DNA of 64,000 nt from Escherichia phage PSD2002. The notes below the pieces were generated by a model. It ran no database searches and was not told where the DNA came from. It saw only the letters and a list, made by a program, of their open reading frames with translations. The stretch lies in sequence record OK335775.1, one strand, 5' to 3'. Within the stretch, counting starts at the first letter, position 1, and each line of letters starts with the position of its first letter. The position numbers were made by a program, and so were the translations under genes. Of this stretch, positions 2,416 to 64,000 are shown one piece after another.

Positions 2416-4311
2416 ATGTCCGAACAATTGAATGAGGTATTTGATGGTGATATAAATTTATCTGCTGTCAATTTAAACCCTAAACTTAAAGTCCCACAGA
2501 TTTGGAATATAAAGGCTGAAGGTAACGAGAACCTTGTTGCCCGCATGGTTTCATATACTTCCGAAGGCGATGTAATTCGTCAGGTTAAGCCTGGTGACAA
2601 GTATGTTCATGTCGTTTTAATGAGCCTATCGGCTAAAGGTTCTCCTGCCGAACTCAAAGGTGGATTAGGTACCAATCCTATTTCCGCTATTCGTTCTATA
2701 TTTGATATCGTCTATGAACAGGTCAAGGCCCTTCGTATGGACGCTGTTATGTTCCGTTTTCCTACCAAGAAAATGAAAGGGCAGGAAAAAGCTATACAGA
2801 GGGTATTGGCTAAATTAATAGCCTCTAGAGCAGGCGGACAGTTTAAAGTTCTTGATGCCTTGTATCAATTCACCGGTAAGCATTCGTATGTTTTTATCTA
2901 TCGTAAAAATAAAAATATAGAATCTATAAATGGTATTCCTAATATTAATTTAGAATTGTATACTAAAGTCGAATCTGAAGTCGGTGACGTGTATGTTTCA
3001 AAGAAAACAGGCGAAGATGTTACCAAACTAGAAGCTATAGCTAAGTCCATAGACGAAATAGAAAAATCACGTTCTGATAAAACTGTTATAACCAAAACAA
3101 AGGTTTCTAAACGTGCTGCTATCAATGCTTTATATCCTACAGCAGAGCCTACAGGATTGAGTAAATTTTCGGCAGAGCACAAAAAAGCTTATGCAGATTA
3201 TTCTGCTACTAGTTCCGTTCATTCTTCTGAAGATTCTAAAGAAAGCCAAATAGCTTTAGCCAGTAATAAAATATTAAAAGACACCTCTAAAGAAATGGCA
3301 GAATATTTGGATTATATTTTTAACGGTGTTAATCCATCATTTGAAGTAGACGAGCGCAAACTTAAACTAATTGCTGATATAAAGTTTGCTTTAGAGGCAT
3401 CAGATTCTTTAGATAAATCTAATAGTGTCATAGAGGCTTTAAAATCAGGTAAATCTCATGTAGACATTCTTAGACTAGTCGCTGCGGCCCTTTTAGATGA
3501 TTCAGTTAAAGGTACTTGGGCTAGAGAATCTAAAATCAAGGAAGTAATAAAATCCTTAGTAGCAGTTTATACAAAATCTATCCAACCGTTGTTTAAGATA
3601 TCTGATAATCCTAATTTATCCAAACCTCAAGAAGAGGCAGTCAAAAAGTATACTCGTGGCGGCTACAACCATATAAACAACTTTTTGCTAGGTAAAACAG
3701 ATACCACCGATGAAATGATAAAAATGATTGGTGAGTTGGATTCTACATTTGAAAATGGTACAAAACTTCCTAAAGGAACCATAGTGTATCGTTCTCAGAT
3801 AATGCCTACCGAAATGGCTTTGAATTCTATAAAACATAAGGTGATGTATCTTCCTATTTTTGCATCAACTTCATTGGCTCCTAATATTTTCGGTGAAATG
3901 GGTCATGCTCAATCCAACTTAGACCCTGAAGCTCTTTCTAGCGATATAGATAGTAATCTTGAAGACACCATTAAAAGTGCGACCGGAAGTGCTAGAGATA
4001 CCATTAAGCTAGGGTTAATTATTAAAGGTGCTGATAAAATTAAGGTTATTGTGCCCGGTGACTTGGCTAATTGGTCTACAGAAACCGAAGTAATTCTTCC
4101 TCGTGGGGTTATGCTTAAGATTAATAAAGTATACGGTGCTTCCAAGGGACCTATGGGTTCAATTGGTAAATATGTTTTAGTGGAATGTGAAGTTGTAGCT
4201 ACCGAGCAAATCACAGAGGAAGATTCATATAGCACCGGATTCTCGTTTGGAAATTATGATAGAATTATGTATGAAGATTCTATGGAAAAATTAGCAAATT
4301 TATTTAAATAG
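2416..4311 (+). CDS. alt: Alt-like ADP-ribosyltransferase, paralog 1 (631 aa)
   Basis: RBS AAAGAGGAA; N-terminal block shared with the next two ORFs; C-terminal ART signatures VYRSQ, FASTSL, ETEVILPRG; position next to gene 30 as in T4. Confidence 0.8.
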   Translation: MSEQLNEVFDGDINLSAVNLNPKLKVPQIWNIKAEGNENLVARMVSYTSEGDVIRQVKPGDKYVHVVLMSLSAKGSPAELKGGLGTNPISAIRSIFDIVYEQVKALRMDAVMFRFPTKKMKGQEKAIQRVLAKLIASRAGGQFKVLDALYQFTGKHSYVFIYRKNKNIESINGIPNINLELYTKVESEVGDVYVSKKTGEDVTKLEAIAKSIDEIEKSRSDKTVITKTKVSKRAAINALYPTAEPTGLSKFSAEHKKAYADYSATSSVHSSEDSKESQIALASNKILKDTSKEMAEYLDYIFNGVNPSFEVDERKLKLIADIKFALEASDSLDKSNSVIEALKSGKSHVDILRLVAAALLDDSVKGTWARESKIKEVIKSLVAVYTKSIQPLFKISDNPNLSKPQEEAVKKYTRGGYNHINNFLLGKTDTTDEMIKMIGELDSTFENGTKLPKGTIVYRSQIMPTEMALNSIKHKVMYLPIFASTSLAPNIFGEMGHAQSNLDPEALSSDIDSNLEDTIKSATGSARDTIKLGLIIKGADKIKVIVPGDLANWSTETEVILPRGVMLKINKVYGASKGPMGSIGKYVLVECEVVATEQITEEDSYSTGFSFGNYDRIMYEDSMEKLANLFK

Positions 4312-4319
4312 GATAGATT

Positions 4320-6401
4320 ATGACCCAATTAAATGAAGTGTTCGAGTCCGAAGGTACACTGCCTGTTGTGAACTTGAACCCAAAACTTAAAGTACCTCAG
4401 ATTTGGAAGATTGGAGACGCGGAGTCTCAGTTAGTAGCACGTATGGTATCCTACGCTTCTGAAGGTGATGCTATTAAACAAGTTAAAATGGGTGATAAAT
4501 ATGCCCACGTTATCCTTATGAGCCTTTCAGCTAAAGGTTCGCCTGCCGAACTTAAAGGCGGCTTAGGCCCTACTCCTGTAGATGCGATTAATACTATTTT
4601 TGATGTGGTTTATGACCAAGTTAAAAAGCTTCGTATGGATGCCGTGATGTTCCGTTTCCCTACTAAGAAAATGAAAGGTCAAGGCCCTATCGTTCAACGG
4701 ATTATCCAACGTTTGGTAGCACAGAAAACCGGTGGACGTTTTAAAGTGGTTCCGGCTATGTACCAATTTACCGGTAAACATACTTACATCCTGGTAGTTC
4801 GTAAACAAGCTGATATAGAAGATATCAAAGGTATGCCTGGAATTAATGCTGAATTGTATACTAAGGTAGATTCTGATGTCGGTGAAGTTTATATTTCTAA
4901 AAAAGAAGGCGTACAGGTTACTAAAGAAACTGCTATCGCCGGTAGTATTGCTAAGGTTGAAGAACGTCGCACTGATAAAATGGTTATAACCAAGACTAAG
5001 ATTTCTCGACGTGCTATTGCAGCAAGTCAATCGTTAGAATCTTATCGTAATGAAAGTGGGCTGTTTAAGAAATATGAAGCTACTGCAGTAGATTTTAATA
5101 AACCGGCAACAGTTCCATTAATCCCTGAGGCCCAGGAAATGGTCACTAATAACAATTCTCCTGCGGCTAAAAATAAGGTTGCTAATATAGTAGCTGAAGG
5201 CACTGCTGAAGAATTGCATTACGACTATAAATTGTTCCCACTTCACGGTATTGGTGAAATCCAAGAGAAAATTAAAGAGAAAATTCTTACAGCTATCAAA
5301 AATGAACCTTTGACATCTGTTAAAGCCCTGGAAAAATATGCCTCTACCATTAATACCATTTTCGAAGAATATAAAGGCGAGTGGCTGGCTATCCATAACA
5401 GAACTCGTAAAGGCCAACCTGACGACGTCTGGAATGAATTAACCGAGTCCAAGTGGAAAGCAGCCAAGACTAAGTTCATTAAAAAACGTGTGTATAGTTT
5501 TGCTGGCGTAGGTGGTGGTATTATGGTCGATATTACTATTGCTCGTGAGGGCTCTAAATATACCCCATCACAAAAGCGCGGCATCAGAGAATATTGTGGT
5601 TCAGGATATACAGACATAAATAATCTTCTTTTAGGACGTTATAATCCCCAGAACTATGAGGTTATGAGCGAAAAAGATATCGAATCTGCAGTTAATAATT
5701 TGGATTCCGCTTTTGAAAATGGCGACCGTATACCAGAAGGCATCACAGTTTATCGTGCACAGAGTATGACTGCTCCTATATACGAAGCACTAGTTAAAAA
5801 TAAAGTGTTCTATTTCAGAAATTTTGTATCTACTTCTTTAACTCCTATAATTTTCGGACGTTTTGGTGTTACACACGCTGGTATTGGTCTTTTAGAACCG
5901 GAAGTTCGCAACGAATTGACAGTTGATAAAAATGAAGAAGGAATAACTATTAATCCTAATGAAATAAGAGCGTATAAGGAAAATCCCGATTACGTTAAGG
6001 TTCAAATAGGATGGGCCATTGATGGGGCTCATAAAGTTAATGTCGTATATCCAGGAAATCTCGGAATAGCAACTGAAGCCGAAGTTATTCTACCGCGTGG
6101 ATTAATGGTCAAAGTTAATAAAATAACAGATGCTTCTAATAATGATGGAACAACATCTAGTAATACAAAACTCATCCAAGCTGAAGTTATGACAACAGAT
6201 GAGCTTCAAGAATCTGTTGTATATGATGGTGATGTACTAATGGAAACCGGCGAGTTGGTCGTATATCAAGATGACTTCGATACTTCCGAAAGCCCCTTAT
6301 CTTTTGATTCATTTGTTAAATCTACACGGTTTGATGTACTGCCTCTTTTGGCTTCATGCATAGACCTCTATGACATCCCAGAAAAATTCATCCAAGGGTA
6401 A
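4320..6401 (+). CDS. alt: Alt-like ADP-ribosyltransferase, paralog 2 (693 aa)
   Basis: Same conserved N-terminal block; C-terminal VYRAQ, FVSTSL, EAEVILPRG; central region unrelated to paralogs 1 and 3. Confidence 0.8.
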   Translation: MTQLNEVFESEGTLPVVNLNPKLKVPQIWKIGDAESQLVARMVSYASEGDAIKQVKMGDKYAHVILMSLSAKGSPAELKGGLGPTPVDAINTIFDVVYDQVKKLRMDAVMFRFPTKKMKGQGPIVQRIIQRLVAQKTGGRFKVVPAMYQFTGKHTYILVVRKQADIEDIKGMPGINAELYTKVDSDVGEVYISKKEGVQVTKETAIAGSIAKVEERRTDKMVITKTKISRRAIAASQSLESYRNESGLFKKYEATAVDFNKPATVPLIPEAQEMVTNNNSPAAKNKVANIVAEGTAEELHYDYKLFPLHGIGEIQEKIKEKILTAIKNEPLTSVKALEKYASTINTIFEEYKGEWLAIHNRTRKGQPDDVWNELTESKWKAAKTKFIKKRVYSFAGVGGGIMVDITIAREGSKYTPSQKRGIREYCGSGYTDINNLLLGRYNPQNYEVMSEKDIESAVNNLDSAFENGDRIPEGITVYRAQSMTAPIYEALVKNKVFYFRNFVSTSLTPIIFGRFGVTHAGIGLLEPEVRNELTVDKNEEGITINPNEIRAYKENPDYVKVQIGWAIDGAHKVNVVYPGNLGIATEAEVILPRGLMVKVNKITDASNNDGTTSSNTKLIQAEVMTTDELQESVVYDGDVLMETGELVVYQDDFDTSESPLSFDSFVKSTRFDVLPLLASCIDLYDIPEKFIQG

Positions 6402-6404
6402 ATA

Positions 6405-8528
6405 ATGGAAAATTTAAATGAGGTTTTTGATAGTGATTCCGCTAAAAACTATCCAGTAACAAATCTTAAACCGGGTTCCGGTATTCCACAGATTTTCTCT
6501 ATCCAAGCACCAGGTAATGATAATCTGGTTGCTCGTATGGTATCTTATGCGTCTCAAGGAGACGCTATTAAAATGGTTAAGCCGGGCGACAAATATGTTC
6601 ATGTTATCTTAATGAGTTTATCTGCTAAAGGCGCTCCGGCAGAACTCAAGGGTGGTTTGGGTACCGATCCACTCGGTACACTGAACACCATTTTCGATAC
6701 CATATATGAACAAATAAACAAACTTAAAATGGACGCGGTTTTGTTCCGTTTCCCTACTAAGAAAATGAAAGGTAAAGGTCCTACCGTTCAGCGCGTATTA
6801 GCTCGCTTGGCTATGGCTCGTACCGGTGGTAAGTTTAAAGTTGTTGACGACATGTTCCAATTCAGCGGAAAACATACCTACGTTCTTTTAGTACGTCGTG
6901 GTGCTAGTATTGAAGATATCAAGGGTATGCCTGAAATTAATGCCGATCTTTATACTAAAGTTGAGTCTAAAGTTGGCGAAGTGTATGTTTCTAAGAAAAC
7001 CGGCCAGGCTGTAAGTAAGGTCGAAGCCGTAGCGGCATCTATTGCACAAGTTGAAGAGAAACGTACTGATAAGGCTGTCATTACTCGTACTAAGATTTCG
7101 CGTCGTATGGCAGCGGCGGCGCAGTATTCTACTGCTGAGCCTGAAACTTTGTCCTCTAAAGAATTGCAGGTTTATAACGAGTTTGAAGCTTCTGTACCGG
7201 TTCACACGGCTGAAGGCCCTGAGAACGAAGGTATTGAACAGATTAGTCAGAACTTTAAAAAAGGTGCCATTACTAAAATGCGTCAGGCTTCTCAGTTTAA
7301 ATCTAAGAGCGAGGACCTTGCCAACTTTAGATACACTATTGCTCTCACACACGCTTTAATGACTGATAGTAAATTTAAACTAAATTATGCTAATAGAGAT
7401 AAACAAGGGTTTGAAATTTACTCTAATAATATGGCATTTTTTAATACAGAAGTCGATAGACTTTTAAGTGGCCTTTCGCAAATCAATACAACCAATAGTC
7501 TGGATATTATTAAGAAAATTGTTAATAACCTGAGTACCCGTTTTAAGGGTTCCCCTTCAGAGAAAGCATCTAGAATTGCTTTCGCTATGGAAGCCGTTTA
7601 TAAACTGGTTAACGATTCTATTAGTGATGCATATGCTTATTCAGGCGAGCTCATTAAACCTAAGGACCTAACCAAAGATGAAAGCAATGCTATTATTGAA
7701 TATTGCGCGGCTGAATATGCTCCTATGAACTTATTCCTTTTAGGTAAACCTGAATCCGAAAACAATACAACGGCTATTAAATTGATTAAGGATTTAGACT
7801 CAGCATTTACTAAGGGTATTAAACTTCCTAAGGGTACTATTTTGTATCGTGGTCAGGATTTGCCATACAAAATTCTGCGCCATAATATCGATAACAAAAC
7901 ATTTTACTTTAAGAACTTTGTGTCAGCCTCATTAAAGCCTAACATCTTTGGTGAATTCGGTAAAAATTATATGGCCCTCGACAACCAAGCCGTTTTTGTT
8001 GGTGGTGAAGGTTCTTTGTCCTCCGCTGATGAGTTGTTTAAATTGGCTAGTGGTAGTTCATCTGATGTGGGTGAAGTCGATGACGAAGAGGTAGAATGGG
8101 AAGAAGACGAGTTTGGTAATCCAATTGCACCTGAAGGTCCTGCAGATAGAATTGCTGAAATTGGTATGGTTATTCGAGGTGCTGAAGCAGTTAAAGTTAT
8201 CGCTCCTGGTGACCTTACAGAATATGCCGAAGAAGCAGAAATTATCCTTCCGCGTGGATTATTGTTGAAGGTTGATAAAGTAGCGGCTTTTGCCATGAAT
8301 GATAGAGTATCTCACAAATACCTTATGGAAGCTACCGTAACGCCTCCTTCAGAGCTCAGCGAATCTGTTTACGATGGTGACCATTTGATGGAAACTGGTG
8401 AAGTTCGCCTGATGGATGGATTTAGTCAATTCTTGGTTAATGAATCCGTTTCTGAAAGCAACGAAGCTATGGAAATCCTTGCCGCGTCTTTGGATATCTC
8501 TTCTTTATCAAATAAATTCAAAATGTAG
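6405..8528 (+). CDS. alt: Alt-like ADP-ribosyltransferase, paralog 3 (707 aa)
   Basis: Same N-terminal block; C-terminal LYRGQ, FVSASL, EAEIILPRG; acidic insert (VDDEEVEWEEDEF). Confidence 0.8.
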   Translation: MENLNEVFDSDSAKNYPVTNLKPGSGIPQIFSIQAPGNDNLVARMVSYASQGDAIKMVKPGDKYVHVILMSLSAKGAPAELKGGLGTDPLGTLNTIFDTIYEQINKLKMDAVLFRFPTKKMKGKGPTVQRVLARLAMARTGGKFKVVDDMFQFSGKHTYVLLVRRGASIEDIKGMPEINADLYTKVESKVGEVYVSKKTGQAVSKVEAVAASIAQVEEKRTDKAVITRTKISRRMAAAAQYSTAEPETLSSKELQVYNEFEASVPVHTAEGPENEGIEQISQNFKKGAITKMRQASQFKSKSEDLANFRYTIALTHALMTDSKFKLNYANRDKQGFEIYSNNMAFFNTEVDRLLSGLSQINTTNSLDIIKKIVNNLSTRFKGSPSEKASRIAFAMEAVYKLVNDSISDAYAYSGELIKPKDLTKDESNAIIEYCAAEYAPMNLFLLGKPESENNTTAIKLIKDLDSAFTKGIKLPKGTILYRGQDLPYKILRHNIDNKTFYFKNFVSASLKPNIFGEFGKNYMALDNQAVFVGGEGSLSSADELFKLASGSSSDVGEVDDEEVEWEEDEFGNPIAPEGPADRIAEIGMVIRGAEAVKVIAPGDLTEYAEEAEIILPRGLLLKVDKVAAFAMNDRVSHKYLMEATVTPPSELSESVYDGDHLMETGEVRLMDGFSQFLVNESVSESNEAMEILAASLDISSLSNKFKM

Positions 8529-27859: not shown

Positions 27860-28495
27860 TTATAACGCTTTTTTCATGGCCTCTGCGAGAGCCATAAAGG
27901 CGTCATCGGCACTGGTATCGGTATCTACCGTTTGTGATTCTGTAATTTGCTTTGGAGTTACATAAGCATCAGGAGCAGATGGTCCCCATACTGCATCAAC
28001 ACCGACGGTTAATTTATAACCTTCGTTTACACGCTTATATCCTTTGTTGGTTTCGGTTAAAGAACCAAGACCACGAGAACTAACACCAGGAACCCAACCA
28101 GCACGGATATTTGCAGCTAGTTTATCACCCGGACCATGGTCACCTTCGATGATACGTGCACGTCCATAAACATCATTACCTTTCCACCACATATCTTCAA
28201 TAATGATAGCGGCTTGCATAGGGTCAACGTTAGCACGAGGTGGATGGTTTAATTCTCCTAAAGCTTGTTTAGTAGCAACCTGTTCTGCCATATAATCAGA
28301 AACGGCTTTTTCCAAAATAGGTTTTGGGTAAAGGCGTTTATTACGGTTAACTACCTCTGCTTGCATGAAAATGCCTTCTATATAAAGGCCGGGAGCAAGC
28401 CCAGAATTTTTTCCATCATGAGATTCCAACATAGGAACCCCATCGATAATTTCACCTGGTTGTCCCCAATGTTCGATGAGCAATTCAGGTTTCAT
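27860..28495 (-). CDS. 21: prohead protease gp21
   Basis: 211 aa (T4 gp21 212 aa); synteny 68-21-22. Confidence 0.85.
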   Translation of the reverse strand: MKPELLIEHWGQPGEIIDGVPMLESHDGKNSGLAPGLYIEGIFMQAEVVNRNKRLYPKPILEKAVSDYMAEQVATKQALGELNHPPRANVDPMQAAIIIEDMWWKGNDVYGRARIIEGDHGPGDKLAANIRAGWVPGVSSRGLGSLTETNKGYKRVNEGYKLTVGVDAVWGPSAPDAYVTPKQITESQTVDTDTSADDAFMALAEAMKKAL

Positions 28496-56525: not shown

Positions 56526-57349
56526 GTATATTTTCTTACATCAACGAGGCTACTGAAACTACAAAAGGTTCCAAGCCTACTCGTTCAGAACAACAATGGA
56601 TAACTTTAGGCGTTGAATATGCCAACGCTAAGGCTAAAGGTGTTTCGGCTAAGAAATTCGCTGAAGATAAAGGCATCAAGTATTCTAGCTTTACATCTGC
56701 GATGTCTCGATACTCGAGTCGAATTAAAACTGCTGTACAGGTTGAAAAACTTCAGAAGAAACCTGGCAATAAATTAACCAAAGCCGAACGTCAATTAATT
56801 TTGGTGAATAGTTTTAGAAAGAGTATTCGCGATAAGATTGCTAACGAAGGCGCTGCCGTAAACAATAAATCAGCTAAATGGTTTACAGAAACATTAAAGA
56901 AAGGAATTCGTGGACACCAGGTATCTAAACCGTCTCCTGGTAAGCTTTATGCTTATATCTATGATGCCAAACATAAGGATACCCTACCATACTGGGACAA
57001 ATATCCTTTAATAATTTATCTTGGGTTAGGTAAGCATAATTTAATGTACGGACTGAACTTACACTATATTCCACCTAAAGCACGTCAGCAATTTCTGGAA
57101 GAATTGCTGAAGCAATACGCGAGTACGCCTACCATTACGAACTCGACTAAATTAAAAATCGATTGGAGTAAGGTAAAAGGATTCGCTGGCGCCGACGTGA
57201 TGATTAAGGCTTATATCCCTGGAAATATTAAGGGACCTTTAGTAGAGATAAAACCGTCTGATTGGGCTAATGTCGTAATGATGCCGCTCCAACAGTTCAT
57301 GTCTAAAGGCAAGCGTTATTCAGCTCAGAAAGTATGGAAGAATTCATAA
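56522..57349 (+). CDS. 2: DNA end protector gp2
   Basis: Track ORF 56513..57349 trimmed to ATG overlapping gp4 TGA (ATGA) with GGAAAGG RBS; 275 aa (T4 gp2 274 aa). Confidence 0.7.
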
Positions 57350-57431
57350 TCTATTATCCCAGCCAGTTATTGAATGGAACAGACCTAGGACCATTATACA
57401 CTGTCTGGGACTTAAGCAATATAGGAACCCT

Positions 57432-58022
57432 ATGAACGGTTTATTTAACCAAACTAACACTACTAACTTTATCTTAGAGGTTAGTGACGCAGGAATGACG
57501 CAGGCATTCAAATTGAACGTACAAGATGTAACACTACCGGGTATCCATATTCCGGTCTCAGACGTCCCGGGATCGACCCAGGGCATACATCGTGCTAAGC
57601 TGCCAGGTTCTACGGTAGAATTCGATCCATTGATTGTGAACTTTCTTGTAGACCGTGAATTGAAATCATGGCTTGATGTTTATAAGTGGATGTTGTCATT
57701 AAACAACTATGTAACCCATGATTCAGAAGCCTGGCACCCTAAAGGACAACCGGAAGCTATCACCCTCCACATCCTTGATAACAACAAACAAAAAATCGTA
57801 ATGAGCATTCATTACTACGGTGGTTGGCCATCTGACCTCTCGGAAATCCAGTACTCTTATAAAGAGGATTCTGACCCGGCGATAATCGCCACAGCAACAT
57901 TCAACTTCAAATCGTTTGCTGTAGAAATAGATGGTACAATAGTTACAGGTCGTCCACAAATTGATTCGTATGCCGAACAACGAGTGGCTCGTATGTCTAT
58001 GCATCCATCTATGAGAAAATAA
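57432..58022 (+). CDS. 3: tail completion / sheath stabilizer gp3
   Basis: 196 aa; assignment by position between genes 2 and 1 only. Confidence 0.6.
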   Translation: MNGLFNQTNTTNFILEVSDAGMTQAFKLNVQDVTLPGIHIPVSDVPGSTQGIHRAKLPGSTVEFDPLIVNFLVDRELKSWLDVYKWMLSLNNYVTHDSEAWHPKGQPEAITLHILDNNKQKIVMSIHYYGGWPSDLSEIQYSYKEDSDPAIIATATFNFKSFAVEIDGTIVTGRPQIDSYAEQRVARMSMHPSMRK

Positions 58023-58780: not shown

Positions 58781-59473
<693 letters not shown>

Positions 59474-59480
59474 GAACAAA

Positions 59481-59810
59481 ATGAAAACATATAACGAATT
59501 TGTACAAACTGAAGCAATTAATGAAGTAGCCATCCCTAAACCGGCTAAAGCTGACGGTACTGAGTACTACCATATTGAAACATCTTTTGATGCAGCTTCA
59601 GATATGGCTAACGGGCTTGGTGATTTCATCCGTCAAGCTAAGTCCGACCTGGCTAAATTTACAAAGACCCTTGATAAAGAGCAAAAGAAACCTTTCTCGG
59701 ATCTGGCTAAAAAACTGGACGCGTTAAATGACAAGGTCTTTAAAGAAGTTTACCACGGTATGATTGGTCTTACCCGTGAATTCAATGCTGAAGTTAAAAA
59801 ACTTCCCTAA
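59481..59810 (+). CDS. internal-protein-like gene 1 with capsid-targeting N-terminus (MKTYNEFVQTE...)
   Basis: N-terminus matches the T4 internal-protein capsid-targeting consensus MKTYQEFIAE; gp21-type (L/I)-x-E sites; position adjacent to 57B as T4 ipI. Confidence 0.7.
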   Translation: MKTYNEFVQTEAINEVAIPKPAKADGTEYYHIETSFDAASDMANGLGDFIRQAKSDLAKFTKTLDKEQKKPFSDLAKKLDALNDKVFKEVYHGMIGLTREFNAEVKKLP

Positions 59811-59820
59811 GTACAGATAA

Positions 59821-59841
59821 GGAGCCACAAAGCTCCTTTTT
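59821..59841 (+). terminator. stem-loop GGAGC-CACAAA-GCTCC + T5
   Basis: 5-bp GC-rich stem followed by TTTTT. Confidence 0.5.
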
Positions 59842-59858
59842 GTATCTAAACAAAAGGT

Positions 59859-59889
59859 GTTTACTTTCCTGGATAGCCGTGATACTATA
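59859..59889 (+). promoter_or_regulatory. early promoter cassette (GTTTAC ... TGATACTATAGCCCTATCAAAACAA)
   Basis: 32-nt core identical to the copy at 60443-60472. Confidence 0.55.
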
Positions 59890-59925
59890 GCCCTATCAAA
59901 ACAAACTAACCAAACGGAAATCAAA

Positions 59926-60150
59926 ATGAAAACTTATCAAGAATTTATTACCGAAGCTAAAAGACATGAAGATGAACTGCCAATTGTTACAAAAACCTTT
60001 GATGGCACACTGGCTGATTTTAAAAAAGTCCCTAGTGATAAGCTTGCTAAATTGACTGGCTCTATCAATGAAAAAGGTGGCAAGGTCACATTTTCTGCTC
60101 AAGGCACTGCCAATCTTAAAAAACTTTTGAAAGCCGCAGGCGTAGAATAA
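59926..60150 (+). CDS. internal-protein-like gene 2 (MKTYQEFITEAK...)
   Basis: Track ORF 59857..60150 begins at GTG inside the promoter; ATG at 59926 gives the MKTYQEF capsid-targeting N-terminus. Confidence 0.65.
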   Translation: MKTYQEFITEAKRHEDELPIVTKTFDGTLADFKKVPSDKLAKLTGSINEKGGKVTFSAQGTANLKKLLKAAGVE

Positions 60151-60151
60151 A

Positions 60152-60424
60152 ATGAAATCATACCAAGAATTTATCGCTGAATCTATTCTTAATGAAGAAG
60201 TAAAAATTAACAAATCTGTTAAGACCATGATTGATAATATAAATCATCTCTATAACATCGATTTGACTAATCACGTAACTTTAGGCAATAAGCGAAACTT
60301 TTTTGTATTTGATACTTCAGAACTTGACCAGAATCAAATTAACAATATTGAACGTTTTGCTAATGAAAAAGGGCTGCGCCACGAGACAGCCGGTTATAAA
60401 AAGTATGCAATTTATTTAAAATAA
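60152..60424 (+). CDS. internal-protein-like gene 3 (MKSYQEFIAESILNEE...)
   Basis: Capsid-targeting-like N-terminus with I-A-E and L-N-E gp21-type sites. Confidence 0.65.
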   Translation: MKSYQEFIAESILNEEVKINKSVKTMIDNINHLYNIDLTNHVTLGNKRNFFVFDTSELDQNQINNIERFANEKGLRHETAGYKKYAIYLK

Positions 60425-60426
60425 TT

Positions 60427-60457
60427 GTTTACAACGGGCTTTAGCCGTGATACTATA
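60427..60457 (+). promoter_or_regulatory. early promoter cassette (GTTTACA ... TGATACTATAGCCCTATCAAAACAA)
   Basis: Duplicate of the cassette at 59859-59903. Confidence 0.55.
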
Positions 60458-60492
60458 GCCCTATCAAAACAAATGAGTGAATGGAGAATAAA

Positions 60493-60678
60493 ATGAAACG
60501 TTGTGAATTAATTAGAAATGTTACTGCACTGGCCGCTGTTACTGCTTTTGGCTTTAGTATGTTTGCAGGATTCATGCTCGATATGCTTTCAACTTCCGAG
60601 AATATAATCTCTTTAGTAGTGGCATTTTTAATTGGTTCAATTTCTTTTGTTATGGATAAAATCTCTAAAGGTGAGTAA
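60493..60678 (+). CDS. small predicted membrane protein (two hydrophobic helices)
   Basis: Track ORF 60481..60678; ATG at 60493 follows GGAG; hydrophobic segments LAAVTAFGFSMFAGFML and [16 protein letters not shown]. Confidence 0.5.
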   Translation: MKRCELIRNVTALAAVTAFGFSMFAGFMLDMLSTSENIISLVVAFLIGSISFVMDKISKGE

Positions 60679-60679
60679 A

Positions 60680-61060
60680 ATGTATAAAGTGTATGCAGAT
60701 TATCAGGCAAATCCATCTGAAAAACCAGATTGTCAAATTGGGTGGGCACACGACACCCTGCTTAAGGCGGTAGATAAAGCCCAGGAATTAGGGTATAGTT
60801 ATGTGGATATTGTTCAACCCAATGGGACCGTTATTACACTTGAAGAATTCAAGAATATCAAAACAAACTTTTTGCTCTTTGCGGGTGATAACTATTACCC
60901 TCGTGGCGGTTATGCCGACTTAATCGCAAAGGCCGCTACTGAAGATGAACTGCGCGATATCATTAAAGAAAATGAGAATAACCCTCTTTACGGTTCTAAT
61001 CGTTTTGACTGGTGGCAGATTGTTAATGCCAATACCCATACTATTGTAGACGAGGGTTAA
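60680..61060 (+). CDS. hypothetical protein (126 aa)
   Basis: Track ORF 60632..61060 begins at TTG overlapping the previous gene; ATG at 60680 with AAAGGTGAG RBS. Confidence 0.5.
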   Translation: MYKVYADYQANPSEKPDCQIGWAHDTLLKAVDKAQELGYSYVDIVQPNGTVITLEEFKNIKTNFLLFAGDNYYPRGGYADLIAKAATEDELRDIIKENENNPLYGSNRFDWWQIVNANTHTIVDEG

Positions 61061-61351
61061 ATGTTATACGTTAAGGTTACTAATCCAGAGAATGGATATA
61101 ATTCAGACCAGGTTGCAGCAGAGCTACTGATTCGCAACTTTGGCAAAGGTGCTGTGCTTGATGTCCAACAGGTTAATATTGGTCGTAGTTCAAGCGACGT
61201 TAAACTAAAAGTTAACGGTCGCCGTTATAATTCTGTTAACTTTACTTTCTACACCGCAACTGAAAACGGGTTGGTCGAATACGACATCTTTAAAAATCCT
61301 TTGAAGATTGCTTCTATTAAACTTGATTACATTAATATGTGGCCACAATGA
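61061..61351 (+). CDS. hypothetical protein (96 aa)
   Basis: Track ORF, ATG start immediately after previous stop. Confidence 0.5.
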   Translation: MLYVKVTNPENGYNSDQVAAELLIRNFGKGAVLDVQQVNIGRSSSDVKLKVNGRRYNSVNFTFYTATENGLVEYDIFKNPLKIASIKLDYINMWPQ

Positions 61352-61525
61352 ACCAAATTTGACCAGACTATTCCTAAAAATAGTAATATGCTTTAAGAGT
61401 AATGTGTTATTATTACTCTATCATTAATACCCTCTATTACCAAAGGTTCTTCCCTCAAAGAACCTTTCATAATAGACAAGGTCTATTAATCAAACTTACT
61501 TTACTTAATTTTATTTGAGGTGTTT

Positions 61526-61792
61526 ATGTTAGTATTAAAATTAGCTTTTTATGACCCGGCAACCAAGACAACAACAACCAAACGTTGTTCTATTTCATAT
61601 GAATGTCAATTTGGTGAAGTTGAGACCGACGGCGGGCCCTTTATGGCAATTGCCGATAGCACATTCGCTAAACCAAAAATAATTCCACTAGTTAACGCTG
61701 CGGCTTATCTGGTTGCTCCTGAAGAAATGACTTATCACACAATTCAGCACATGGCTAAAGATGATAATGCTCCTGCTGGATTTGTAGTTTAA
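61526..61792 (+). CDS. hypothetical protein (88 aa)
   Basis: Track ORF 61520..61792 begins at GTG; ATG at 61526 follows GAGG. Confidence 0.5.
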   Translation: MLVLKLAFYDPATKTTTTKRCSISYECQFGEVETDGGPFMAIADSTFAKPKIIPLVNAAAYLVAPEEMTYHTIQHMAKDDNAPAGFVV

Positions 61793-61797
61793 ATTAA

Positions 61798-61874
61798 GGC
61801 CCTGTAGCTCAATGGTTAGCAGCAGTCCCCTCATAAGGGAAAGGTTACCAGTTCAAATCTGGTCCGGGTCACCA
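61798..61874 (+). tRNA. tRNA with CAU anticodon (Ile2 or Met), non-canonical D-stem
   Basis: Hand fold: acceptor GGCCCTG/CCGGGTC (one mismatch, one G-U), anticodon loop CTCATAA, T-arm ACCAG-TTCAAAT-CTGGT, encoded CCA. Confidence 0.6.
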
Positions 61875-61879
61875 ACTAT

Positions 61880-61954
61880 GTCCCGCTGGTGTAATGGATA
61901 GCATACGATCCTTCTAAGTTTGCGGTCCTGGTTCGATCCCAGGGCGGGATACCA
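61880..61954 (+). tRNA. tRNA-Arg (anticodon UCU)
   Basis: Hand fold: acceptor GTCCCGC/GCGGGAT, D-loop AATGGATA, anticodon loop CTTCTAA, T-arm CCTGG-TTCGATC-CCAGG, encoded CCA; T4 also encodes a tRNA-Arg(UCU). Confidence 0.75.
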
Positions 61955-62335
61955 AATGAAGACTATTATATAGTCAAGCCGTCGTATGAAGACTGATTAC
62001 CAGCATTCACCGGCGCAACAAACAAGAAACCGGGTCGCTACCGGTAAGTCGTCGGACTGATGTTCCCTGAGTAAGGACTGGCATTAACAAATCTTTACGA
62101 TCTGTTAACGTTCCCTTACATCACAGCAGAAACGGCGCACCGAATTATCGATTCGAGGAAATATCTTTGCCGTAAGCCGAGTAGCGTTTTTGACGGAACG
62201 TTCGGATATGGTCGAGATATGGCCTTTTAAAAATATTGAGTGGCGTCAACTACTTAATAACCGGGTTCGAATCCCGGCGTTTCGTACAAACACTTGCCTA
62301 GCAGGTGGAACCCCGACAAGGTTACCCTAGGTTAA
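61955..62335 (+). ncRNA. candidate stable small RNA(s) with tRNA-like T-arm (position of T4 rnaC/rnaD); boundaries uncertain
   Basis: About 380 nt with no ORF over 24 codons, immediately after tRNA-Arg and ending at a terminator; contains CCGGG-TTCGAAT-CCCGG at 62261-62277 and a possible 7-bp acceptor pairing 62194-62200 with 62278-62284. Confidence 0.3.
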
Positions 62336-62336
62336 A

Positions 62337-62364
62337 GGCCCTTCCGAAAGGTTGGGCTTTTTTT
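62337..62364 (+). terminator. terminator GGCCCTTCCGAAAGGTTGGGC + T7 (variant of the repeated element)
   Basis: GC stem plus T-run; copy of the motif at 16963 and 62980. Confidence 0.55.
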
Positions 62365-62365
62365 G

Positions 62366-62373
62366 TATAAATA
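62366..62373 (+). promoter_or_regulatory. late promoter TATAAATA upstream of internal-protein-like gene 4
   Basis: Exact TATAAATA 26 nt before the ATG at 62400. Confidence 0.5.
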
Positions 62374-62399
62374 TGTAGTAAACTAACTTAGGAAATAAT

Positions 62400-62864
62400 A
62401 TGAAAACTTACAATGAATTTTTGACTGAACAATCTAGTTCAGATGTAAAAGCCGCTGCTATTGCAGCAATTCAAGCAGGTAAATATTCTTACAAAGACGC
62501 CTCTGATGAAGAACGTTTCCGTTTTATTAAAGATTTTAAAGCCGAAGGTTTTACTAATGCTAATACTGTTAGCCGAGTTTTTAAAAGCCTAGCTGCATCA
62601 GGTGAATTGTTCCAGAAAGCTACAGGTAAAGCACCTGCGTCAAAAGCGGACCCTAAAGCCGCTCAAGAAAAAAATATCGCCAAAGGAATTATTTCTAAGT
62701 ATGAAGCAATTCTTAAAGAGCTTTTAGTAATCAAAACAGAAGGCCAGAAACTGGCACGAGCACATAGCTTCAAAGATAATCCACATGCTCACGACTTAGA
62801 GTATGTTGAAGATATTCAGAAAATCATCAAAGACCGTATCTGGTCTGCTAAACAAATCAAATAA
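62400..62864 (+). CDS. internal-protein-like gene 4 (MKTYNEFLTEQ...)
   Basis: Capsid-targeting-like N-terminus with L-T-E gp21-type site; late promoter. Confidence 0.65.
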   Translation: MKTYNEFLTEQSSSDVKAAAIAAIQAGKYSYKDASDEERFRFIKDFKAEGFTNANTVSRVFKSLAASGELFQKATGKAPASKADPKAAQEKNIAKGIISKYEAILKELLVIKTEGQKLARAHSFKDNPHAHDLEYVEDIQKIIKDRIWSAKQIK

Positions 62865-62866
62865 CG

Positions 62867-62888
62867 AAAGCCCCAGATGGGGCTTTTT
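62867..62888 (+). terminator. stem-loop AGCCCC-AGAT-GGGGCT + T5
   Basis: Perfect 6-bp stem followed by TTTTT directly after the stop codon. Confidence 0.6.
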
Positions 62889-62979
62889 GGTTAACTTAGA
62901 GAAATATATGAAACTTTTAAAATAAAGCTATGTTAGCCTTCCACATAAACCCATTCCGGTTCTACAAGAACTGATTCTA

Positions 62980-63007
62980 GGCCCTTCCGAAAGGTTGGGC
63001 CTTTTTT
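62980..63007 (+). terminator. terminator GGCCCTTCCGAAAGGTTGGGCC + T6 (repeated element)
   Basis: Identical to the element at 16963. Confidence 0.6.
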
Positions 63008-63030
63008 GTTTCTAAAAAGTTTAAAAAGTT

Positions 63031-63060
63031 GTTTACACCTCCTTTAAACATGATACTATA
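63031..63060 (+). promoter_or_regulatory. early promoter cassette (GTTTACA ... TGATACTATAGACCTATCAAAACAA)
   Basis: Third copy of the conserved early-promoter core. Confidence 0.55.
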
Positions 63061-63094
63061 GACCTATCAAAACAACAGAGTGAAGGAGAGTAAA

Positions 63095-63358
63095 ATGGAT
63101 AATTATGGTGAATTGTTTAATTTCTTTATGAAATGCGTTCCGGAAGAATTTGGTGCTACAGTTAACGATATTAAAGTTATCGGTCCTGAACACCCGGTGT
63201 ATGAAACCTATGCAGTAATGGGTAATGAAGATGGACAGTGGTATACAATTAAAGTTGTGATTAATATGTTCTCAGCTGAAGGTTACGCCAAATCGTCTAC
63301 CAAAGTTTACCATGGTAATGATTTTGATGCAGAAAATTATTTCAATAATATGAAATAA
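63095..63358 (+). CDS. hypothetical protein (87 aa)
   Basis: Track ORF 63080..63358 begins at GTG; ATG at 63095 follows GAAGGAGAG. Confidence 0.5.
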   Translation: MDNYGELFNFFMKCVPEEFGATVNDIKVIGPEHPVYETYAVMGNEDGQWYTIKVVINMFSAEGYAKSSTKVYHGNDFDAENYFNNMK

Positions 63359-63361
63359 AAC

Positions 63362-63397
63362 GTTTACATGGGCTCATGATTAAGATATTATGAGCCC
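63362..63397 (+). promoter_or_regulatory. early promoter (GTTTACA, 17-bp spacer, TATTAT) with 8-bp inverted repeat across spacer and -10
   Basis: GGGCTCAT at 63370-63377 pairs with ATGAGCCC at 63390-63397. Confidence 0.45.
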
Positions 63398-63416
63398 ATA
63401 ATTTGAGGAGAACATA

Positions 63417-63815
63417 ATGAATATCGAAGATAAAGAAATGCAAGAGTTGTATAATTCATTAACACCTGAACAACAAAAATATGCCAAAGAACTAGAGAAA
63501 GCTCTTACTTTCAACTTGGCAAAAACTGATTGGGCCGCGATGTATGAAGAAAAAACTAGATTAGAAATTGAAGCTGCTGAGAGAAATGAATGGGTTGTCG
63601 AAACCAAGATTTCTGATGGTGGTTGCTCTGTTGAGGTGTCAGCTGTAGTTAAAGGTACCCATGGCGAAAAATCATGGGGCTGGCATAATGAAGCAAACAA
63701 ATGTATTGTTCTCTCAACGTCAAAAACTTATGGGCAAAGGGCTCCTGTATCCAAAGCTATTATTAAGCAAGCTCAATGGGAAGCCAATGAAATTTGCCTC
63801 GCAAAAATGAAATAA
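63417..63815 (+). CDS. hypothetical protein (132 aa)
   Basis: Track ORF with ATG and GAGGAG RBS; no recognisable motif. Confidence 0.5.
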   Translation: MNIEDKEMQELYNSLTPEQQKYAKELEKALTFNLAKTDWAAMYEEKTRLEIEAAERNEWVVETKISDGGCSVEVSAVVKGTHGEKSWGWHNEANKCIVLSTSKTYGQRAPVSKAIIKQAQWEANEICLAKMK

Positions 63816-63819
63816 AAAT

Positions 63820-63855
63820 GTTTACAACCCTCAGAGGACAGGGTATAATGTCCTC
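63820..63855 (+). promoter_or_regulatory. early promoter (GTTTACA, 17-bp spacer, TATAAT) with 7-bp inverted repeat flanking the -10
   Basis: GAGGACA at 63834-63840 pairs with TGTCCTC at 63849-63855. Confidence 0.45.
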
Positions 63856-63891
63856 ATGGATTATAAATCTTAATCAACTGAAGGAAATACT

Positions 63892-64000
63892 ATGAACACT
63901 TTAAAGAAAATCGTTGAATTCATCCGTTCTAAACTGGGTACCGCAATGACTCAGAACCTGTCAATCGAAGACCAATACACCAAAGCGGCTTCTACCCTGA
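63892..64000 (+). CDS. hypothetical protein, 3'-truncated at window edge
   Basis: ATG at 63892 after GAAGGAAA; frame open to the end of the window ([16 protein letters not shown]...). Confidence 0.4.

Follow-up and report, generated by a model that had tools for sequence, protein, structure and literature searches.

Genes at the ip locus and beyond the tRNA block

The DNA analysed here, referred to as the window, is a stretch of 64,000 nucleotides from Escherichia phage PSD2002 (OK335775.1), a member of Dhakavirus, the JS98/QL01-like group of T4 relatives; the closest genome is that of phage E33, with a 98.6% match. Along the window the gene order is 3, 1, 57A, 57B, a group of genes that begin with a capsid-targeting sequence (CTS), trna.4/.3/.2 and tRNAs, and this order matches that of T4, in which ipI fills the slot of the CTS genes. 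The left edge of the locus is formed by 57B (59018..59473, + strand), which is syntenic with T4 57B and carries a Pfam match to Acb1 (PF23474, E 1.2e-58), its product being a homologue of the anti-CBASS phosphodiesterase Acb1. An earlier, sequence-only reading had noted three adjacent small open reading frames next to 57B, in the position of the single ipI gene of T4. Both observations were confirmed, with the three genes placed on the + strand at 59481-59810, 59926-60150 and 60152-60424, between 57B and trna.4, which is the known ip locus. The three CTS genes of that reading stand, and a fourth, which it overlooked, was found at 62400-62864. An Rfam scan of positions 59000-64000 returned two tRNAs and nothing else.

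Gene 1 (59481..59810, + strand) encodes a protein of 109 aa, with a predicted leader of residues 1-15 and a predicted mature part of 94 aa (10.5 kDa, pI 8.1). Its product is PSD2002_0171 (100% identity) and was assigned to phrog_7857 'internal virion protein' (E 1.4e-24), a rare family with members in 8 of 50,697 phage records and in two clusters among 5.8 billion proteins. For gene 2, the program-called open reading frame begins with a GTG at 59857, and the start codon of the CTS is the ATG at 59926, which is accompanied by a Shine-Dalgarno sequence. Read from this ATG, gene 2 is Ip8 (59926..60150, + strand), a protein of 74 aa with the leader MKTYQEFITE and a predicted mature part of 64 aa (6.8 kDa, pI 9.6). 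It belongs to phrog_8765 'internal virion protein' (E 2.2e-27), occurs in 107 phage records, is annotated as Ip8 in QL01 and VR5, and has 90% identity to VR5 ip8. Among the entries listed in the supplements of one Jiaodavirus virion study, there were no peptides for the Klebsiella Ip8 homologue.

The start codon of gene 3, Ip9 (60152..60424, + strand), lies 1 nt past the Ip8 stop codon. Ip9 has 90 aa, the leader MKSYQEFIAE and a predicted mature part of 80 aa (9.4 kDa, pI 8.0); it belongs to phrog_7673 'internal head protein' (E 6.5e-56), which is represented in 199 phage records, and shares 77% identity with Ip9 of RB15 (Q38376) and 78% with that of RB32. The names Ip8 and Ip9 are present in the QL01, IME08, VR5 and RB32 records, and a literature search on these names returned only unrelated uses of the strings.

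The fourth CTS gene (62400..62864, + strand) encodes 154 aa, with the leader MKTYNEFLTE and a predicted mature part of 144 aa (15.9 kDa, pI 9.5). It falls into phrog_2280 'unknown function', found in 511 phage records, and the listed matches to this family are annotated as hypothetical or 'unknown function' throughout, one match having no annotated gene. The gene sits outside both known ip loci, in the interval from rnaC to e.8, which is unoccupied in T4; RB69, RB32/wV7, IME08 and Klebsiella phages have CTS proteins of a modular, two-domain build there. Its AlphaFold2 model (pLDDT 72) shows two helical domains with a Pro/Ala/Lys linker between them; a Foldseek comparison of the model with the PDB gave nothing below E = 0.8.

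Taken together, this is the hyperplastic ipI locus well known from T4-like coliphages, and it is ordinary for the phage group. In all likelihood it holds three internal-protein (IP) genes, namely a rare phrog_7857 member, Ip8 and Ip9, with a fourth IP-like gene past the tRNA/rnaD-rnaC block.

Promoters, repeats and cassette boundaries

Gene 1 is followed by an intrinsic-terminator-like stem-loop (59819..59838, + strand) of seven pairs and a T run, and an early-promoter-like TTTACT-N17-TACTAT lies upstream of Ip8 (59860..59888, + strand). These are the two halves of a PeSL (promoter-early stem-loop), an element found at the borders of variable open reading frames, in which the early promoter comes after a terminator stem-loop and has the T4/PST consensus TTTACW-N17-TAYWAT (PMC4122927). 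Direct repeats of about 32 nt containing the promoter core (family D2) flank Ip8-Ip9: the left copy (59873..59905, + strand) coincides with an indel breakpoint relative to E33, and the right copy (60442..60474, + strand) is inside the early-promoter-like site of trna.4 (60428-60456). The Ip8-Ip9 cassette is inserted relative to E33, with the 32-nt promoter-core repeat at both bounds, and compared with QL01, 25 nt are replaced by a gene 1 module (59473-59872). The locus displays the stem-loop, the early promoter and the promoter-core repeats at the E33 and QL01 breakpoints that characterize PeSL elements. The array is assembled from cassettes gained and lost through recombination between these repeated promoter/terminator elements.

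The number of CTS genes in the 57B-tRNA interval was counted across 37 loci: none is present in 4, a single one in 16, two in 13 and three in 4. Three tandem CTS genes were considered as an unusual feature and this was rejected, as they are at the top of the distribution yet shared by 4 of the 37 loci. The exact combination of gene 1, Ip8 and Ip9 was absent from the 50,697 phage records, with a best coverage of 65%.

No late promoter was found directly upstream of genes 1-3, where the only promoter is the early-type element before Ip8; T4 ipI, ipII and ipIII are alike in this respect, being preceded by the same early-promoter element. The fourth gene has an exact T4 late promoter, TATAAATA (62366..62373, + strand), 26 nt upstream of its start, and no other + strand copy exists in the final 8 kb of the window. 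Ten of 13 members of the 154-aa family conserve a late promoter at a distance of at most 50 nt before the gene. The terminator hairpin of the rnaC homologue (62336..62366, + strand) recurs as a 31-nt direct repeat (family D3) at 62979-63009, on the other side of the 154-aa gene; the left and right copies are 97% identical, and both align to the single copy in T4.

Leaders and predicted processing

A six-frame scan of the 64 kb with the motif MK[ST]Y.EF gave four matches, every one on the + strand, at the start of an open reading frame and within 3 kb. By chance, 0.0011 matches per window are expected (analytic), and none of 100 shuffles gave a match; the earlier assignment of the N-termini of genes 1-3 to the T4 capsid-targeting sequence is well founded. 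The leaders are MKTYNEFVQTEAINE for gene 1, MKTYQEFITE for Ip8, MKSYQEFIAE for Ip9 and MKTYNEFLTE for the 154-aa gene. Mutagenesis has shown that targeting depends on CTS residues 4 and 7, and processing on residues 8 and 10 (PMC9026906). All four genes encode tyrosine 4 and phenylalanine 7; of 67 unique relatives, 100% have Y or F at position 4 and F at position 7. At the processing positions, [IL]8 and E10 occur in three of the four (I-T-E in Ip8, I-A-E in Ip9 and L-T-E in the 154-aa gene), with E, not D, at P1.

Gene 1 is the exception. The sequence-only reading had all three leaders of the locus ending in (L/I)-x-E, which is the case for Ip8 and Ip9; in gene 1, E11 lies in the context V-Q-T-E, which is no such site, and the first true site is shifted to I13-N14-E15. 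Homologues of gene 1 have leaders of 12, 15 and 26 residues, in each of which [IL]-x-E ends the leader and a conserved V/A-x-[IVF]-P-K-P comes directly after it. Cleavage of the gene 1 product after residue 15 is accordingly a prediction that is supported by the homologue alignment. The T4 leader MKTYQEFIAE, as quoted in the sequence-only reading, is that of IPII and IPIII, and IPI has its own 19-residue leader, MKTFKEFTSTTTPVSTITE, PDB entry 2JUB (T4 IPI) beginning at residue 20.

The enzyme expected to remove the leaders is encoded by gene 21 (27860..28495, - strand), a member of phrog_207 'head maturation protease' (E 5.6e-76). With gp21, gp22, gp68, gp23, gp24 and gp20 all encoded in the window, both the prohead protease and the scaffolding core are accounted for, and gp23 of the same phage has the site FLTE|AEIGG (LTE|A). 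The predicted mature N-termini of gene 1, Ip8, Ip9 and the 154-aa gene are VAIPKPAK..., AKRHEDELPIVTK, SILNEEVK... and QSSSDVK..., respectively; Ip9 has a second possible site, L-N-E, from which the mature protein would start EVKINK....

The early-type promoter ahead of Ip8, the lack of a late promoter adjoining genes 1-3, and the 62-74% DNA identity over 50 nt among the 5' ends of the four CTS genes (repeat family D1) would also fit early cytoplasmic proteins that are never packaged, the conserved 5' ends then being recombination handles or translation-initiation regions. This account is highly improbable. Conservation is at the level of protein and falls exactly on the targeting and cleavage residues, while synonymous and flanking positions vary, and the cleavage motif follows the leader/mature boundary as the leader changes in length. 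In addition, T4 ipI-III are packaged despite the same promoter arrangement, and the late promoter at the fourth gene is conserved.

From their sequences, then, we consider it very likely that the four CTS proteins are packaged, cleaved and injected. Each precursor would carry the N-terminal CTS MK(T/S)Y-x-EF(I/L/V)-x-E, which would confer affinity for the prohead scaffolding core, and the gp21 protease would cut after (L/I)-x-E. The mildly basic mature proteins of 6.8-15.9 kDa would remain among the packaged DNA and would be ejected with it, acting before any phage gene is expressed. The T4-type internal-protein identity first proposed for the genes of the locus agrees with every sequence-level feature testable here, including the CTS, the site, synteny, size and pI, and the protease.

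Mature domains and predicted targets

In a survey of 82 CTS open reading frames from about 40 loci, one common leader was found in front of 21 unrelated clusters of mature domains, and the four CTS proteins of the window sit in four separate clusters. As had been stated from the letters, the mature parts of the locus are mutually unrelated at the sequence level, no pair exceeding shuffled controls after correction for multiple testing. A common origin of gene 1 and Ip8, the best pair (z = 3.6), was rejected after correction for 21 comparisons. None of the four CTS proteins could be placed in a Pfam or NCBIfam family, the sole match being a sub-threshold one between DUF7412 and the Ip8 leader, and sequence searches of the PDB were empty for gene 1, for Ip8, for Ip9 and for the 154-aa family. 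An AlphaFold2 model of Ip9 (pLDDT 81) has an unstructured leader and a mature alpha-beta-beta-alpha-beta-beta fold. Against the PDB it produced generic alpha/beta matches only, and IPI* was not retrieved; against BFVD there was one significant match, to a 535-aa viral protein.

The predicted mature products (6.8-15.9 kDa, pI 8.0-9.6, net charge +1 to +7) can be compared with the T4 IPs at 8-20 kDa and pI 9.0-9.65. This basic character is consistent with packaged head components that have a physical role in DNA charge neutralisation, condensation, packaging or ejection and no host target, as are the facts that each T4 IP is found in about 300 copies and binds DNA under low-salt conditions (PMC9026906) and that IP lysines touch DNA phosphates (PMC3012670). 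Such a role is nonetheless improbable as the explanation, for it leaves unexplained both the 21 unrelated mature families behind one leader and the rapid turnover of cassettes between near-identical phages. T4 IPs are, moreover, needed on specific wild hosts and dispensable on laboratory hosts, and the mature parts of gene 1 and Ip9 are near neutral, with a net charge of +1.

An anti-defence role is the probable one for the CTS proteins, and the mature proteins would most likely be stoichiometric inhibitors of host restriction. In an earlier account, IPs form a varied group of defence proteins with the CTS alone in common (PMC3012670), and the published view of the ip locus is traced to Repoila 1994, by way of Rao & Black 2010, and to Silas 2025. 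The reading of these genes as diversified, packaged and co-injected anti-defence effectors is probably right, and it is not new, because it is already the published interpretation of the ip locus (PMC3012670, PMC9026906, PMC12373910).

As to the targets, T4 Ip1, Ip2 and Ip3 were shown to inhibit three different GmrSD type IV restriction enzymes, one apiece (Silas 2025; PMC12373910), and by analogy individual GmrSD-family variants may be regarded, tentatively, as the leading candidates here. Enzymes of this family attack DNA in which hydroxymethylcytosine (hmC) carries a sugar. JS98-type phages have gene 42 and lack T4-type glucosyltransferases (PMC2993671), and arabinosyl-hmC DNA is also cut by GmrSD (PMC6024577). 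It is suggestive that RB15, with Ip9 and without IPI*, plates on CT596 GmrSD (PMC4437046 Table 3).

The distribution of the Ip9 domain bears on the alternative that some or all of these packaged, injected anti-defence effectors act against defences other than GmrSD, such as McrBC, Mrr or unrelated systems. In Kagunavirus siphophages the mature domain is encoded, free of a CTS, by the gene that opens an early operon, and it is embedded, internally or C-terminally, in proteins of 683-861 aa of Ackermannviridae and others. The Kagunavirus siphophages have no hmC pathway, and JSSK01, whose leaderless homologue is JSSK01_64, encodes a cytosine methyltransferase; because the leaderless domain is found in such phages, the target of Ip9 need not be a sugar-hmC-specific enzyme. 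Moreover, the adjacent 57B encodes an anti-CBASS enzyme, which indicates that the neighbourhood is not dedicated to a single defence type. The mature domains of the window also show no pairwise similarity to T4 Ip1-3 beyond shuffled controls, but as T4 Ip1-3 are themselves mutually unrelated, this dissimilarity is uninformative and does not define a class. Against such targets, each of the three IPs whose target is known acts on a GmrSD enzyme, and the authors of that T4 work hold both Ip loci to be dedicated to the GmrSD family; on this evidence we regard non-GmrSD targets as rather unlikely.

Within the anti-defence reading, the three uses of the Ip9 domain (CTS-fused, leaderless early and embedded) suggest a target broader than sugar-hmC-specific GmrSD. 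It is possible, and we offer it with reserve, that this domain is autonomous with such a broader target and that the 154-aa gene marks a third T-even IP site, at rnaC/e.8. Neither a third IP site nor the three-way use of the Ip9 domain was described in the literature searched.

Interchangeable injected inhibitors of type IV restriction are established in T-even phages, and the make-up of the locus influences host range and hence the choice of therapeutic phages. To this the window adds an allele combination (a rare first-slot protein with Ip8 and Ip9) and clean cassette breakpoints. Targets are known for three of more than 20 IP families, so that gene 1, Ip8, Ip9 and the 154-aa family are test cases for the matching of IPs to GmrSD enzymes.

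Among known systems, PeSL elements, the mobile regulatory cassettes known from T4-type phages (Arbiol 2010; Comeau 2014), gain a further example in the window, with no difference found. T4 ipI, whose IPI* inhibits the CT596/Eco94 GmrSD, resembles the locus in its 57B/trna.4 slot, its early promoter type, its CTS cleaved at (L/I)-x-E and its small basic mature protein; it differs in being one gene versus three, in its 19-residue leader and in a mature part without sequence similarity. Genes 2 and 3 are orthologues of Ip8 and Ip9 of RB15/K3-type T-even phages, and represent new alleles in a Dhakavirus background that differ in no substantial way; those proteins were reportedly described by Repoila et al. 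in EMBO J in 1994, and their names are said to have carried into GenBank from there. The capsid-carried anti-restriction proteins DarA and DarB of phage P1 are delivered with the DNA and embody the same concept, with no relation to the IPs in protein, in targeting mechanism or in target (type I restriction-modification). Finally, T4 IPII and IPIII, inhibitors of the ECOR21 and ECOR17 GmrSD enzymes, have the leader MKTYQEFIAE, near-identical to those of Ip8 and Ip9, and the same processing logic. Their locus is near gene e and their mature domains are unrelated to those of the window, yet they are the precedent, at the level of function, for one phage carrying several IPs that are unrelated to each other.

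Capsid-targeting leaders beside 57B

Three adjoining plus-strand genes at 59481-60424 begin with a capsid-targeting sequence (CTS), the N-terminal leader of T4 internal proteins (IPs) that is cut by the prohead protease gp21. Gene 1 (109 aa, 59481-59810, +) starts with MKTYNEFVQTEAINE, gene 2 (74 aa, +) has the leader MKTYQEFITE, and gene 3 (90 aa, 60152-60424, +), whose ATG lies 1 nt beyond the gene 2 stop, has MKSYQEFIAE. The mechanical reading frame of gene 2 begins at GTG 59857; a Shine-Dalgarno sequence and the CTS motif point to ATG 59926. A six-frame scan of the 64 kb found MK[ST]Y.EF four times, always at the start of a plus-strand ORF, against 0.0011 matches expected from residue frequencies and no match in any of 100 shuffles, confirming the three ORFs described in the sequence-only reading. 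The fourth match opens a 154-aa gene (62400-62864, +; MKTYNEFLTE).

Dhakavirus genomes of the JS98/QL01 type match the window, phage E33 most closely (98.6%), and gene 1 has 100% identity to PSD2002_0171 of Escherichia phage PSD2002. Genes 2 and 3 are named Ip8 and Ip9 in public records (QL01, IME08, VR5, RB32), and gene 3 shares 77% identity with RB15 Ip9 (Q38376). In PHROG, genes 1-3 fall into phrog_7857 (E 1.4e-24), phrog_8765 (E 2.2e-27) and phrog_7673 (E 6.5e-56), labelled as internal virion or head proteins. Gene 1 is rare: 8 of the 50,697 phage records have it, and a set of 5.8 billion proteins contains two clusters. Its homologues in Citrobacter and Enterobacter phages go by "internal virion protein" in RefSeq. 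Two of the three genes thus represent named families, and gene 1 a catalogued one.

As had been proposed, the array adjoins 57B in the slot of T4 ipI. In T4 numbering, the order is gene 3, gene 1 (dNMP kinase), 57A, 57B, the three CTS genes, trna.4, trna.3, trna.2, tRNA-Met, tRNA-Arg, homologues of T4 rnaD/rnaC, the fourth CTS gene and e.8; T4 has the same gene order, but ipI stands alone between 57B and trna.4. The non-coding stretch after tRNA-Arg (62019-62368, +) shares 90% identity with rnaD and rnaC, stable RNAs of T4 (species 2 and species 1 RNA), and no Rfam family matched it. 57B itself (59018-59473, +), labelled 'RNA ligase' in RefSeq records, is clearly homologous to Acb1, a phosphodiesterase that counters CBASS (Pfam PF23474, E 1e-58), and an anti-defence gene therefore directly adjoins the internal-protein array. 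Upstream, the gap between the DNA end protector gene 2 and gene 3 measures only 83 nt (57349-57432); in QL01 and E33, the closest relatives, a 651-bp homing endonuclease gene occupies this spot.

The window also encodes the machinery that CTS proteins would need, namely gp21 (27860-28495, -), scaffold gp22, gp68, gp23, gp24 and portal gp20, and its gp23 bears the classic cleavage site FLTE|AEIGG. At 2416-8528 (+) an Alt-like ADP-ribosyltransferase occurs as three tandem paralogues (631, 693 and 707 aa), whose N-termini read ...QLNEVF or ...NLNEVF, each with an L-N-E protease-type motif. T4 has one alt gene, and Alt is another head protein that is packaged and injected.

In T4, IPII and IPIII share the leader MKTYQEFIAE; that of IPI has 19 residues (MKTFKEFTSTTTPVSTITE), and the solved IPI* structure 2JUB starts at residue 20. 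CTS mutagenesis assigned residues 4 and 7 to targeting and residues 8 and 10 to processing (PMC9026906). All four window CTS genes have Y4 and F7. The reported (L/I)-x-E leader ends hold at positions 8-10 in Ip8 and Ip9, as also in the 154-aa gene; in gene 1 the site is shifted, since V-Q-T-E does not fit the gp21 motif and I13-N14-E15 comes after it. Leaders in the gene 1 family vary in length (12 residues in CF1, 15 in the window, 26 in Morganella phage Rgz1), and all three end in [IL]-x-E immediately N-terminal to a conserved V/A-x-[IVF]-P-K-P; the cut in gene 1 is therefore predicted after E15. Predicted mature lengths are 94 (gene 1), 64 (Ip8), 80 (Ip9) and 144 aa (154-aa gene), and the products (6.8-15.9 kDa, pI 8.0-9.6) are similar to T4 IPs.

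Probable assembly of the array from cassettes

Thirty-six loci fetched via 57B were scanned together with annotated records, yielding 82 CTS ORFs (67 unique) in 21 mature-domain clusters, with the leader consensus MK[TS][YF]xEF[IL]xE[AS]. Between 57B and the tRNAs, 4 loci lacked a CTS gene, 16 had a single one, 13 had two, and 4 had three (the window, IME341, IME281 and Citrobacter CF1), which puts three at the top of the usual range. Stripped of their leaders, the four window proteins fall into four different clusters, and no Smith-Waterman score between mature parts exceeded shuffled controls after correction for 21 comparisons (best pair gene 1 and Ip8, z = 3.6), bearing out, as far as sequence goes, the claim that the mature parts are mutually unrelated. 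None resembles T4 IPI, IPII or IPIII.

None of the 50,697 phage records searched combines gene 1, Ip8 and Ip9 (59380-60520 in the window); the best coverage of the 1.1-kb locus is 65%. The E33 locus has gene 1 only and the QL01 locus Ip8 and Ip9 only, and both align to the window with clean breakpoints. Compared with E33, the window carries Ip8-Ip9 as an inserted cassette between direct repeats of ~32 nt (59873-59905 and 60442-60474) that form the core of an early-type promoter. In place of 25 nt in QL01, it has a module (59473-59872) made up of gene 1, a terminator stem-loop (59819-59838) and the promoter's -35 half. The array looks like a recombinant of E33-type and QL01-type loci joined at a common promoter core. 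The stem-loop and TTTACT-N17-TACTAT match the published T4/PST-group PeSL (promoter-early stem-loop, a mobile regulatory cassette), TTTACW-N17-TAYWAT (PMC4122927), and the same promoter lies upstream of each of T4 ipI, ipII and ipIII. PeSL-type cassette shuffling, as seen here, is a known mechanism for hyperplastic regions.

Putative anti-restriction role and leaderless Ip9 relatives

In the published T4 model, the precursor owes its affinity for the prohead core to the CTS; gp21 then cuts the leader off, and ~300 copies per IP stay with the DNA and are ejected into the host (PMC3012670, PMC9026906). T4 IPI* inhibits CT596/Eco94 GmrSD (PMC3012670, PMC4437046), Ip2 and Ip3 block other variants of GmrSD and give no cross-protection, and every protein of both Ip loci has been proposed to target GmrSD variants (Silas et al. 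2025, PMC12373910). The window proteins share the sequence-level features of such proteins, from which we infer packaging, cleavage, injection and a target. Family searches detected no enzymatic domain in any of the four, which would fit binding-type inhibitors and proves nothing. Because GmrSD also cuts arabinosyl-hmC DNA (PMC6024577) and JS98-type phages have gene 42, while lacking T4-type glucosyltransferases (PMC2993671), a sugar-hmC target is plausible in this phage. Judged by sequence, the earlier interpretation of a diversified set of co-injected, plausibly anti-defence proteins appears right, yet it repeats the established view of the ip locus.

The mature Ip9 domain (60182-60421) is also found leaderless, as at L007 2507-2725 and L008 692-2743. 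Kagunavirus siphophages (~10 records) carry it as a stand-alone 72-aa product that lacks a CTS and whose gene opens an early operon; JSSK01_64 is 51% identical across Ip9 residues 17-90. Larger phage proteins also contain it: residues 603-665 in one of 683 aa from Ackermannviridae, and residues 664-734 in one of 861 aa. Only 9 clusters (50% identity) contain the domain in 1.84 billion representative proteins, about three with a CTS and five without. As JSSK01 encodes a cytosine methyltransferase and no hmC pathway, the domain may act against modification-dependent nucleases as a broader class, or have some other target.

A CTS site beyond the tRNA genes

The residual interest lies in these leaderless relatives and in the unannotated family of the 154-aa gene. 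An exact late promoter (TATAAATA, 62366-62373) lies upstream of this gene and is kept within 50 nt in 10 of 13 family members. The family is phrog_2280 ("unknown function"), found in 511 phage records, and the annotated genes under the matches listed are called hypothetical or of unknown function. In the predicted model (pLDDT 72), three helices make up the N-domain, and a disordered Pro/Ala/Lys linker (residues ~72-85) leads on to a helical hairpin; the protein has no PDB match.

Other CTS proteins at this post-tRNA site are RB69ORF149c (MKTYAEFLTE) in RB69, gp137 in wV7, similar to RB32ORF133c, orf129 (205 aa) in IME08 and RCIP0032_00236 (MKFKEFLAE, likewise behind a late promoter) in a Klebsiella phage; two-domain variants have N- and C-domains shuffled among them. 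T4, which has a single copy of the 31-nt rnaC terminator hairpin, lacks the cassette (62369-62977); in the window it is inserted between two copies (62336-62366 and 62979-63009). Since only two Ip loci appear in Silas et al. 2025, the post-tRNA site, where T4 has nothing, is probably a third internal-protein locus, so far unrecognised.
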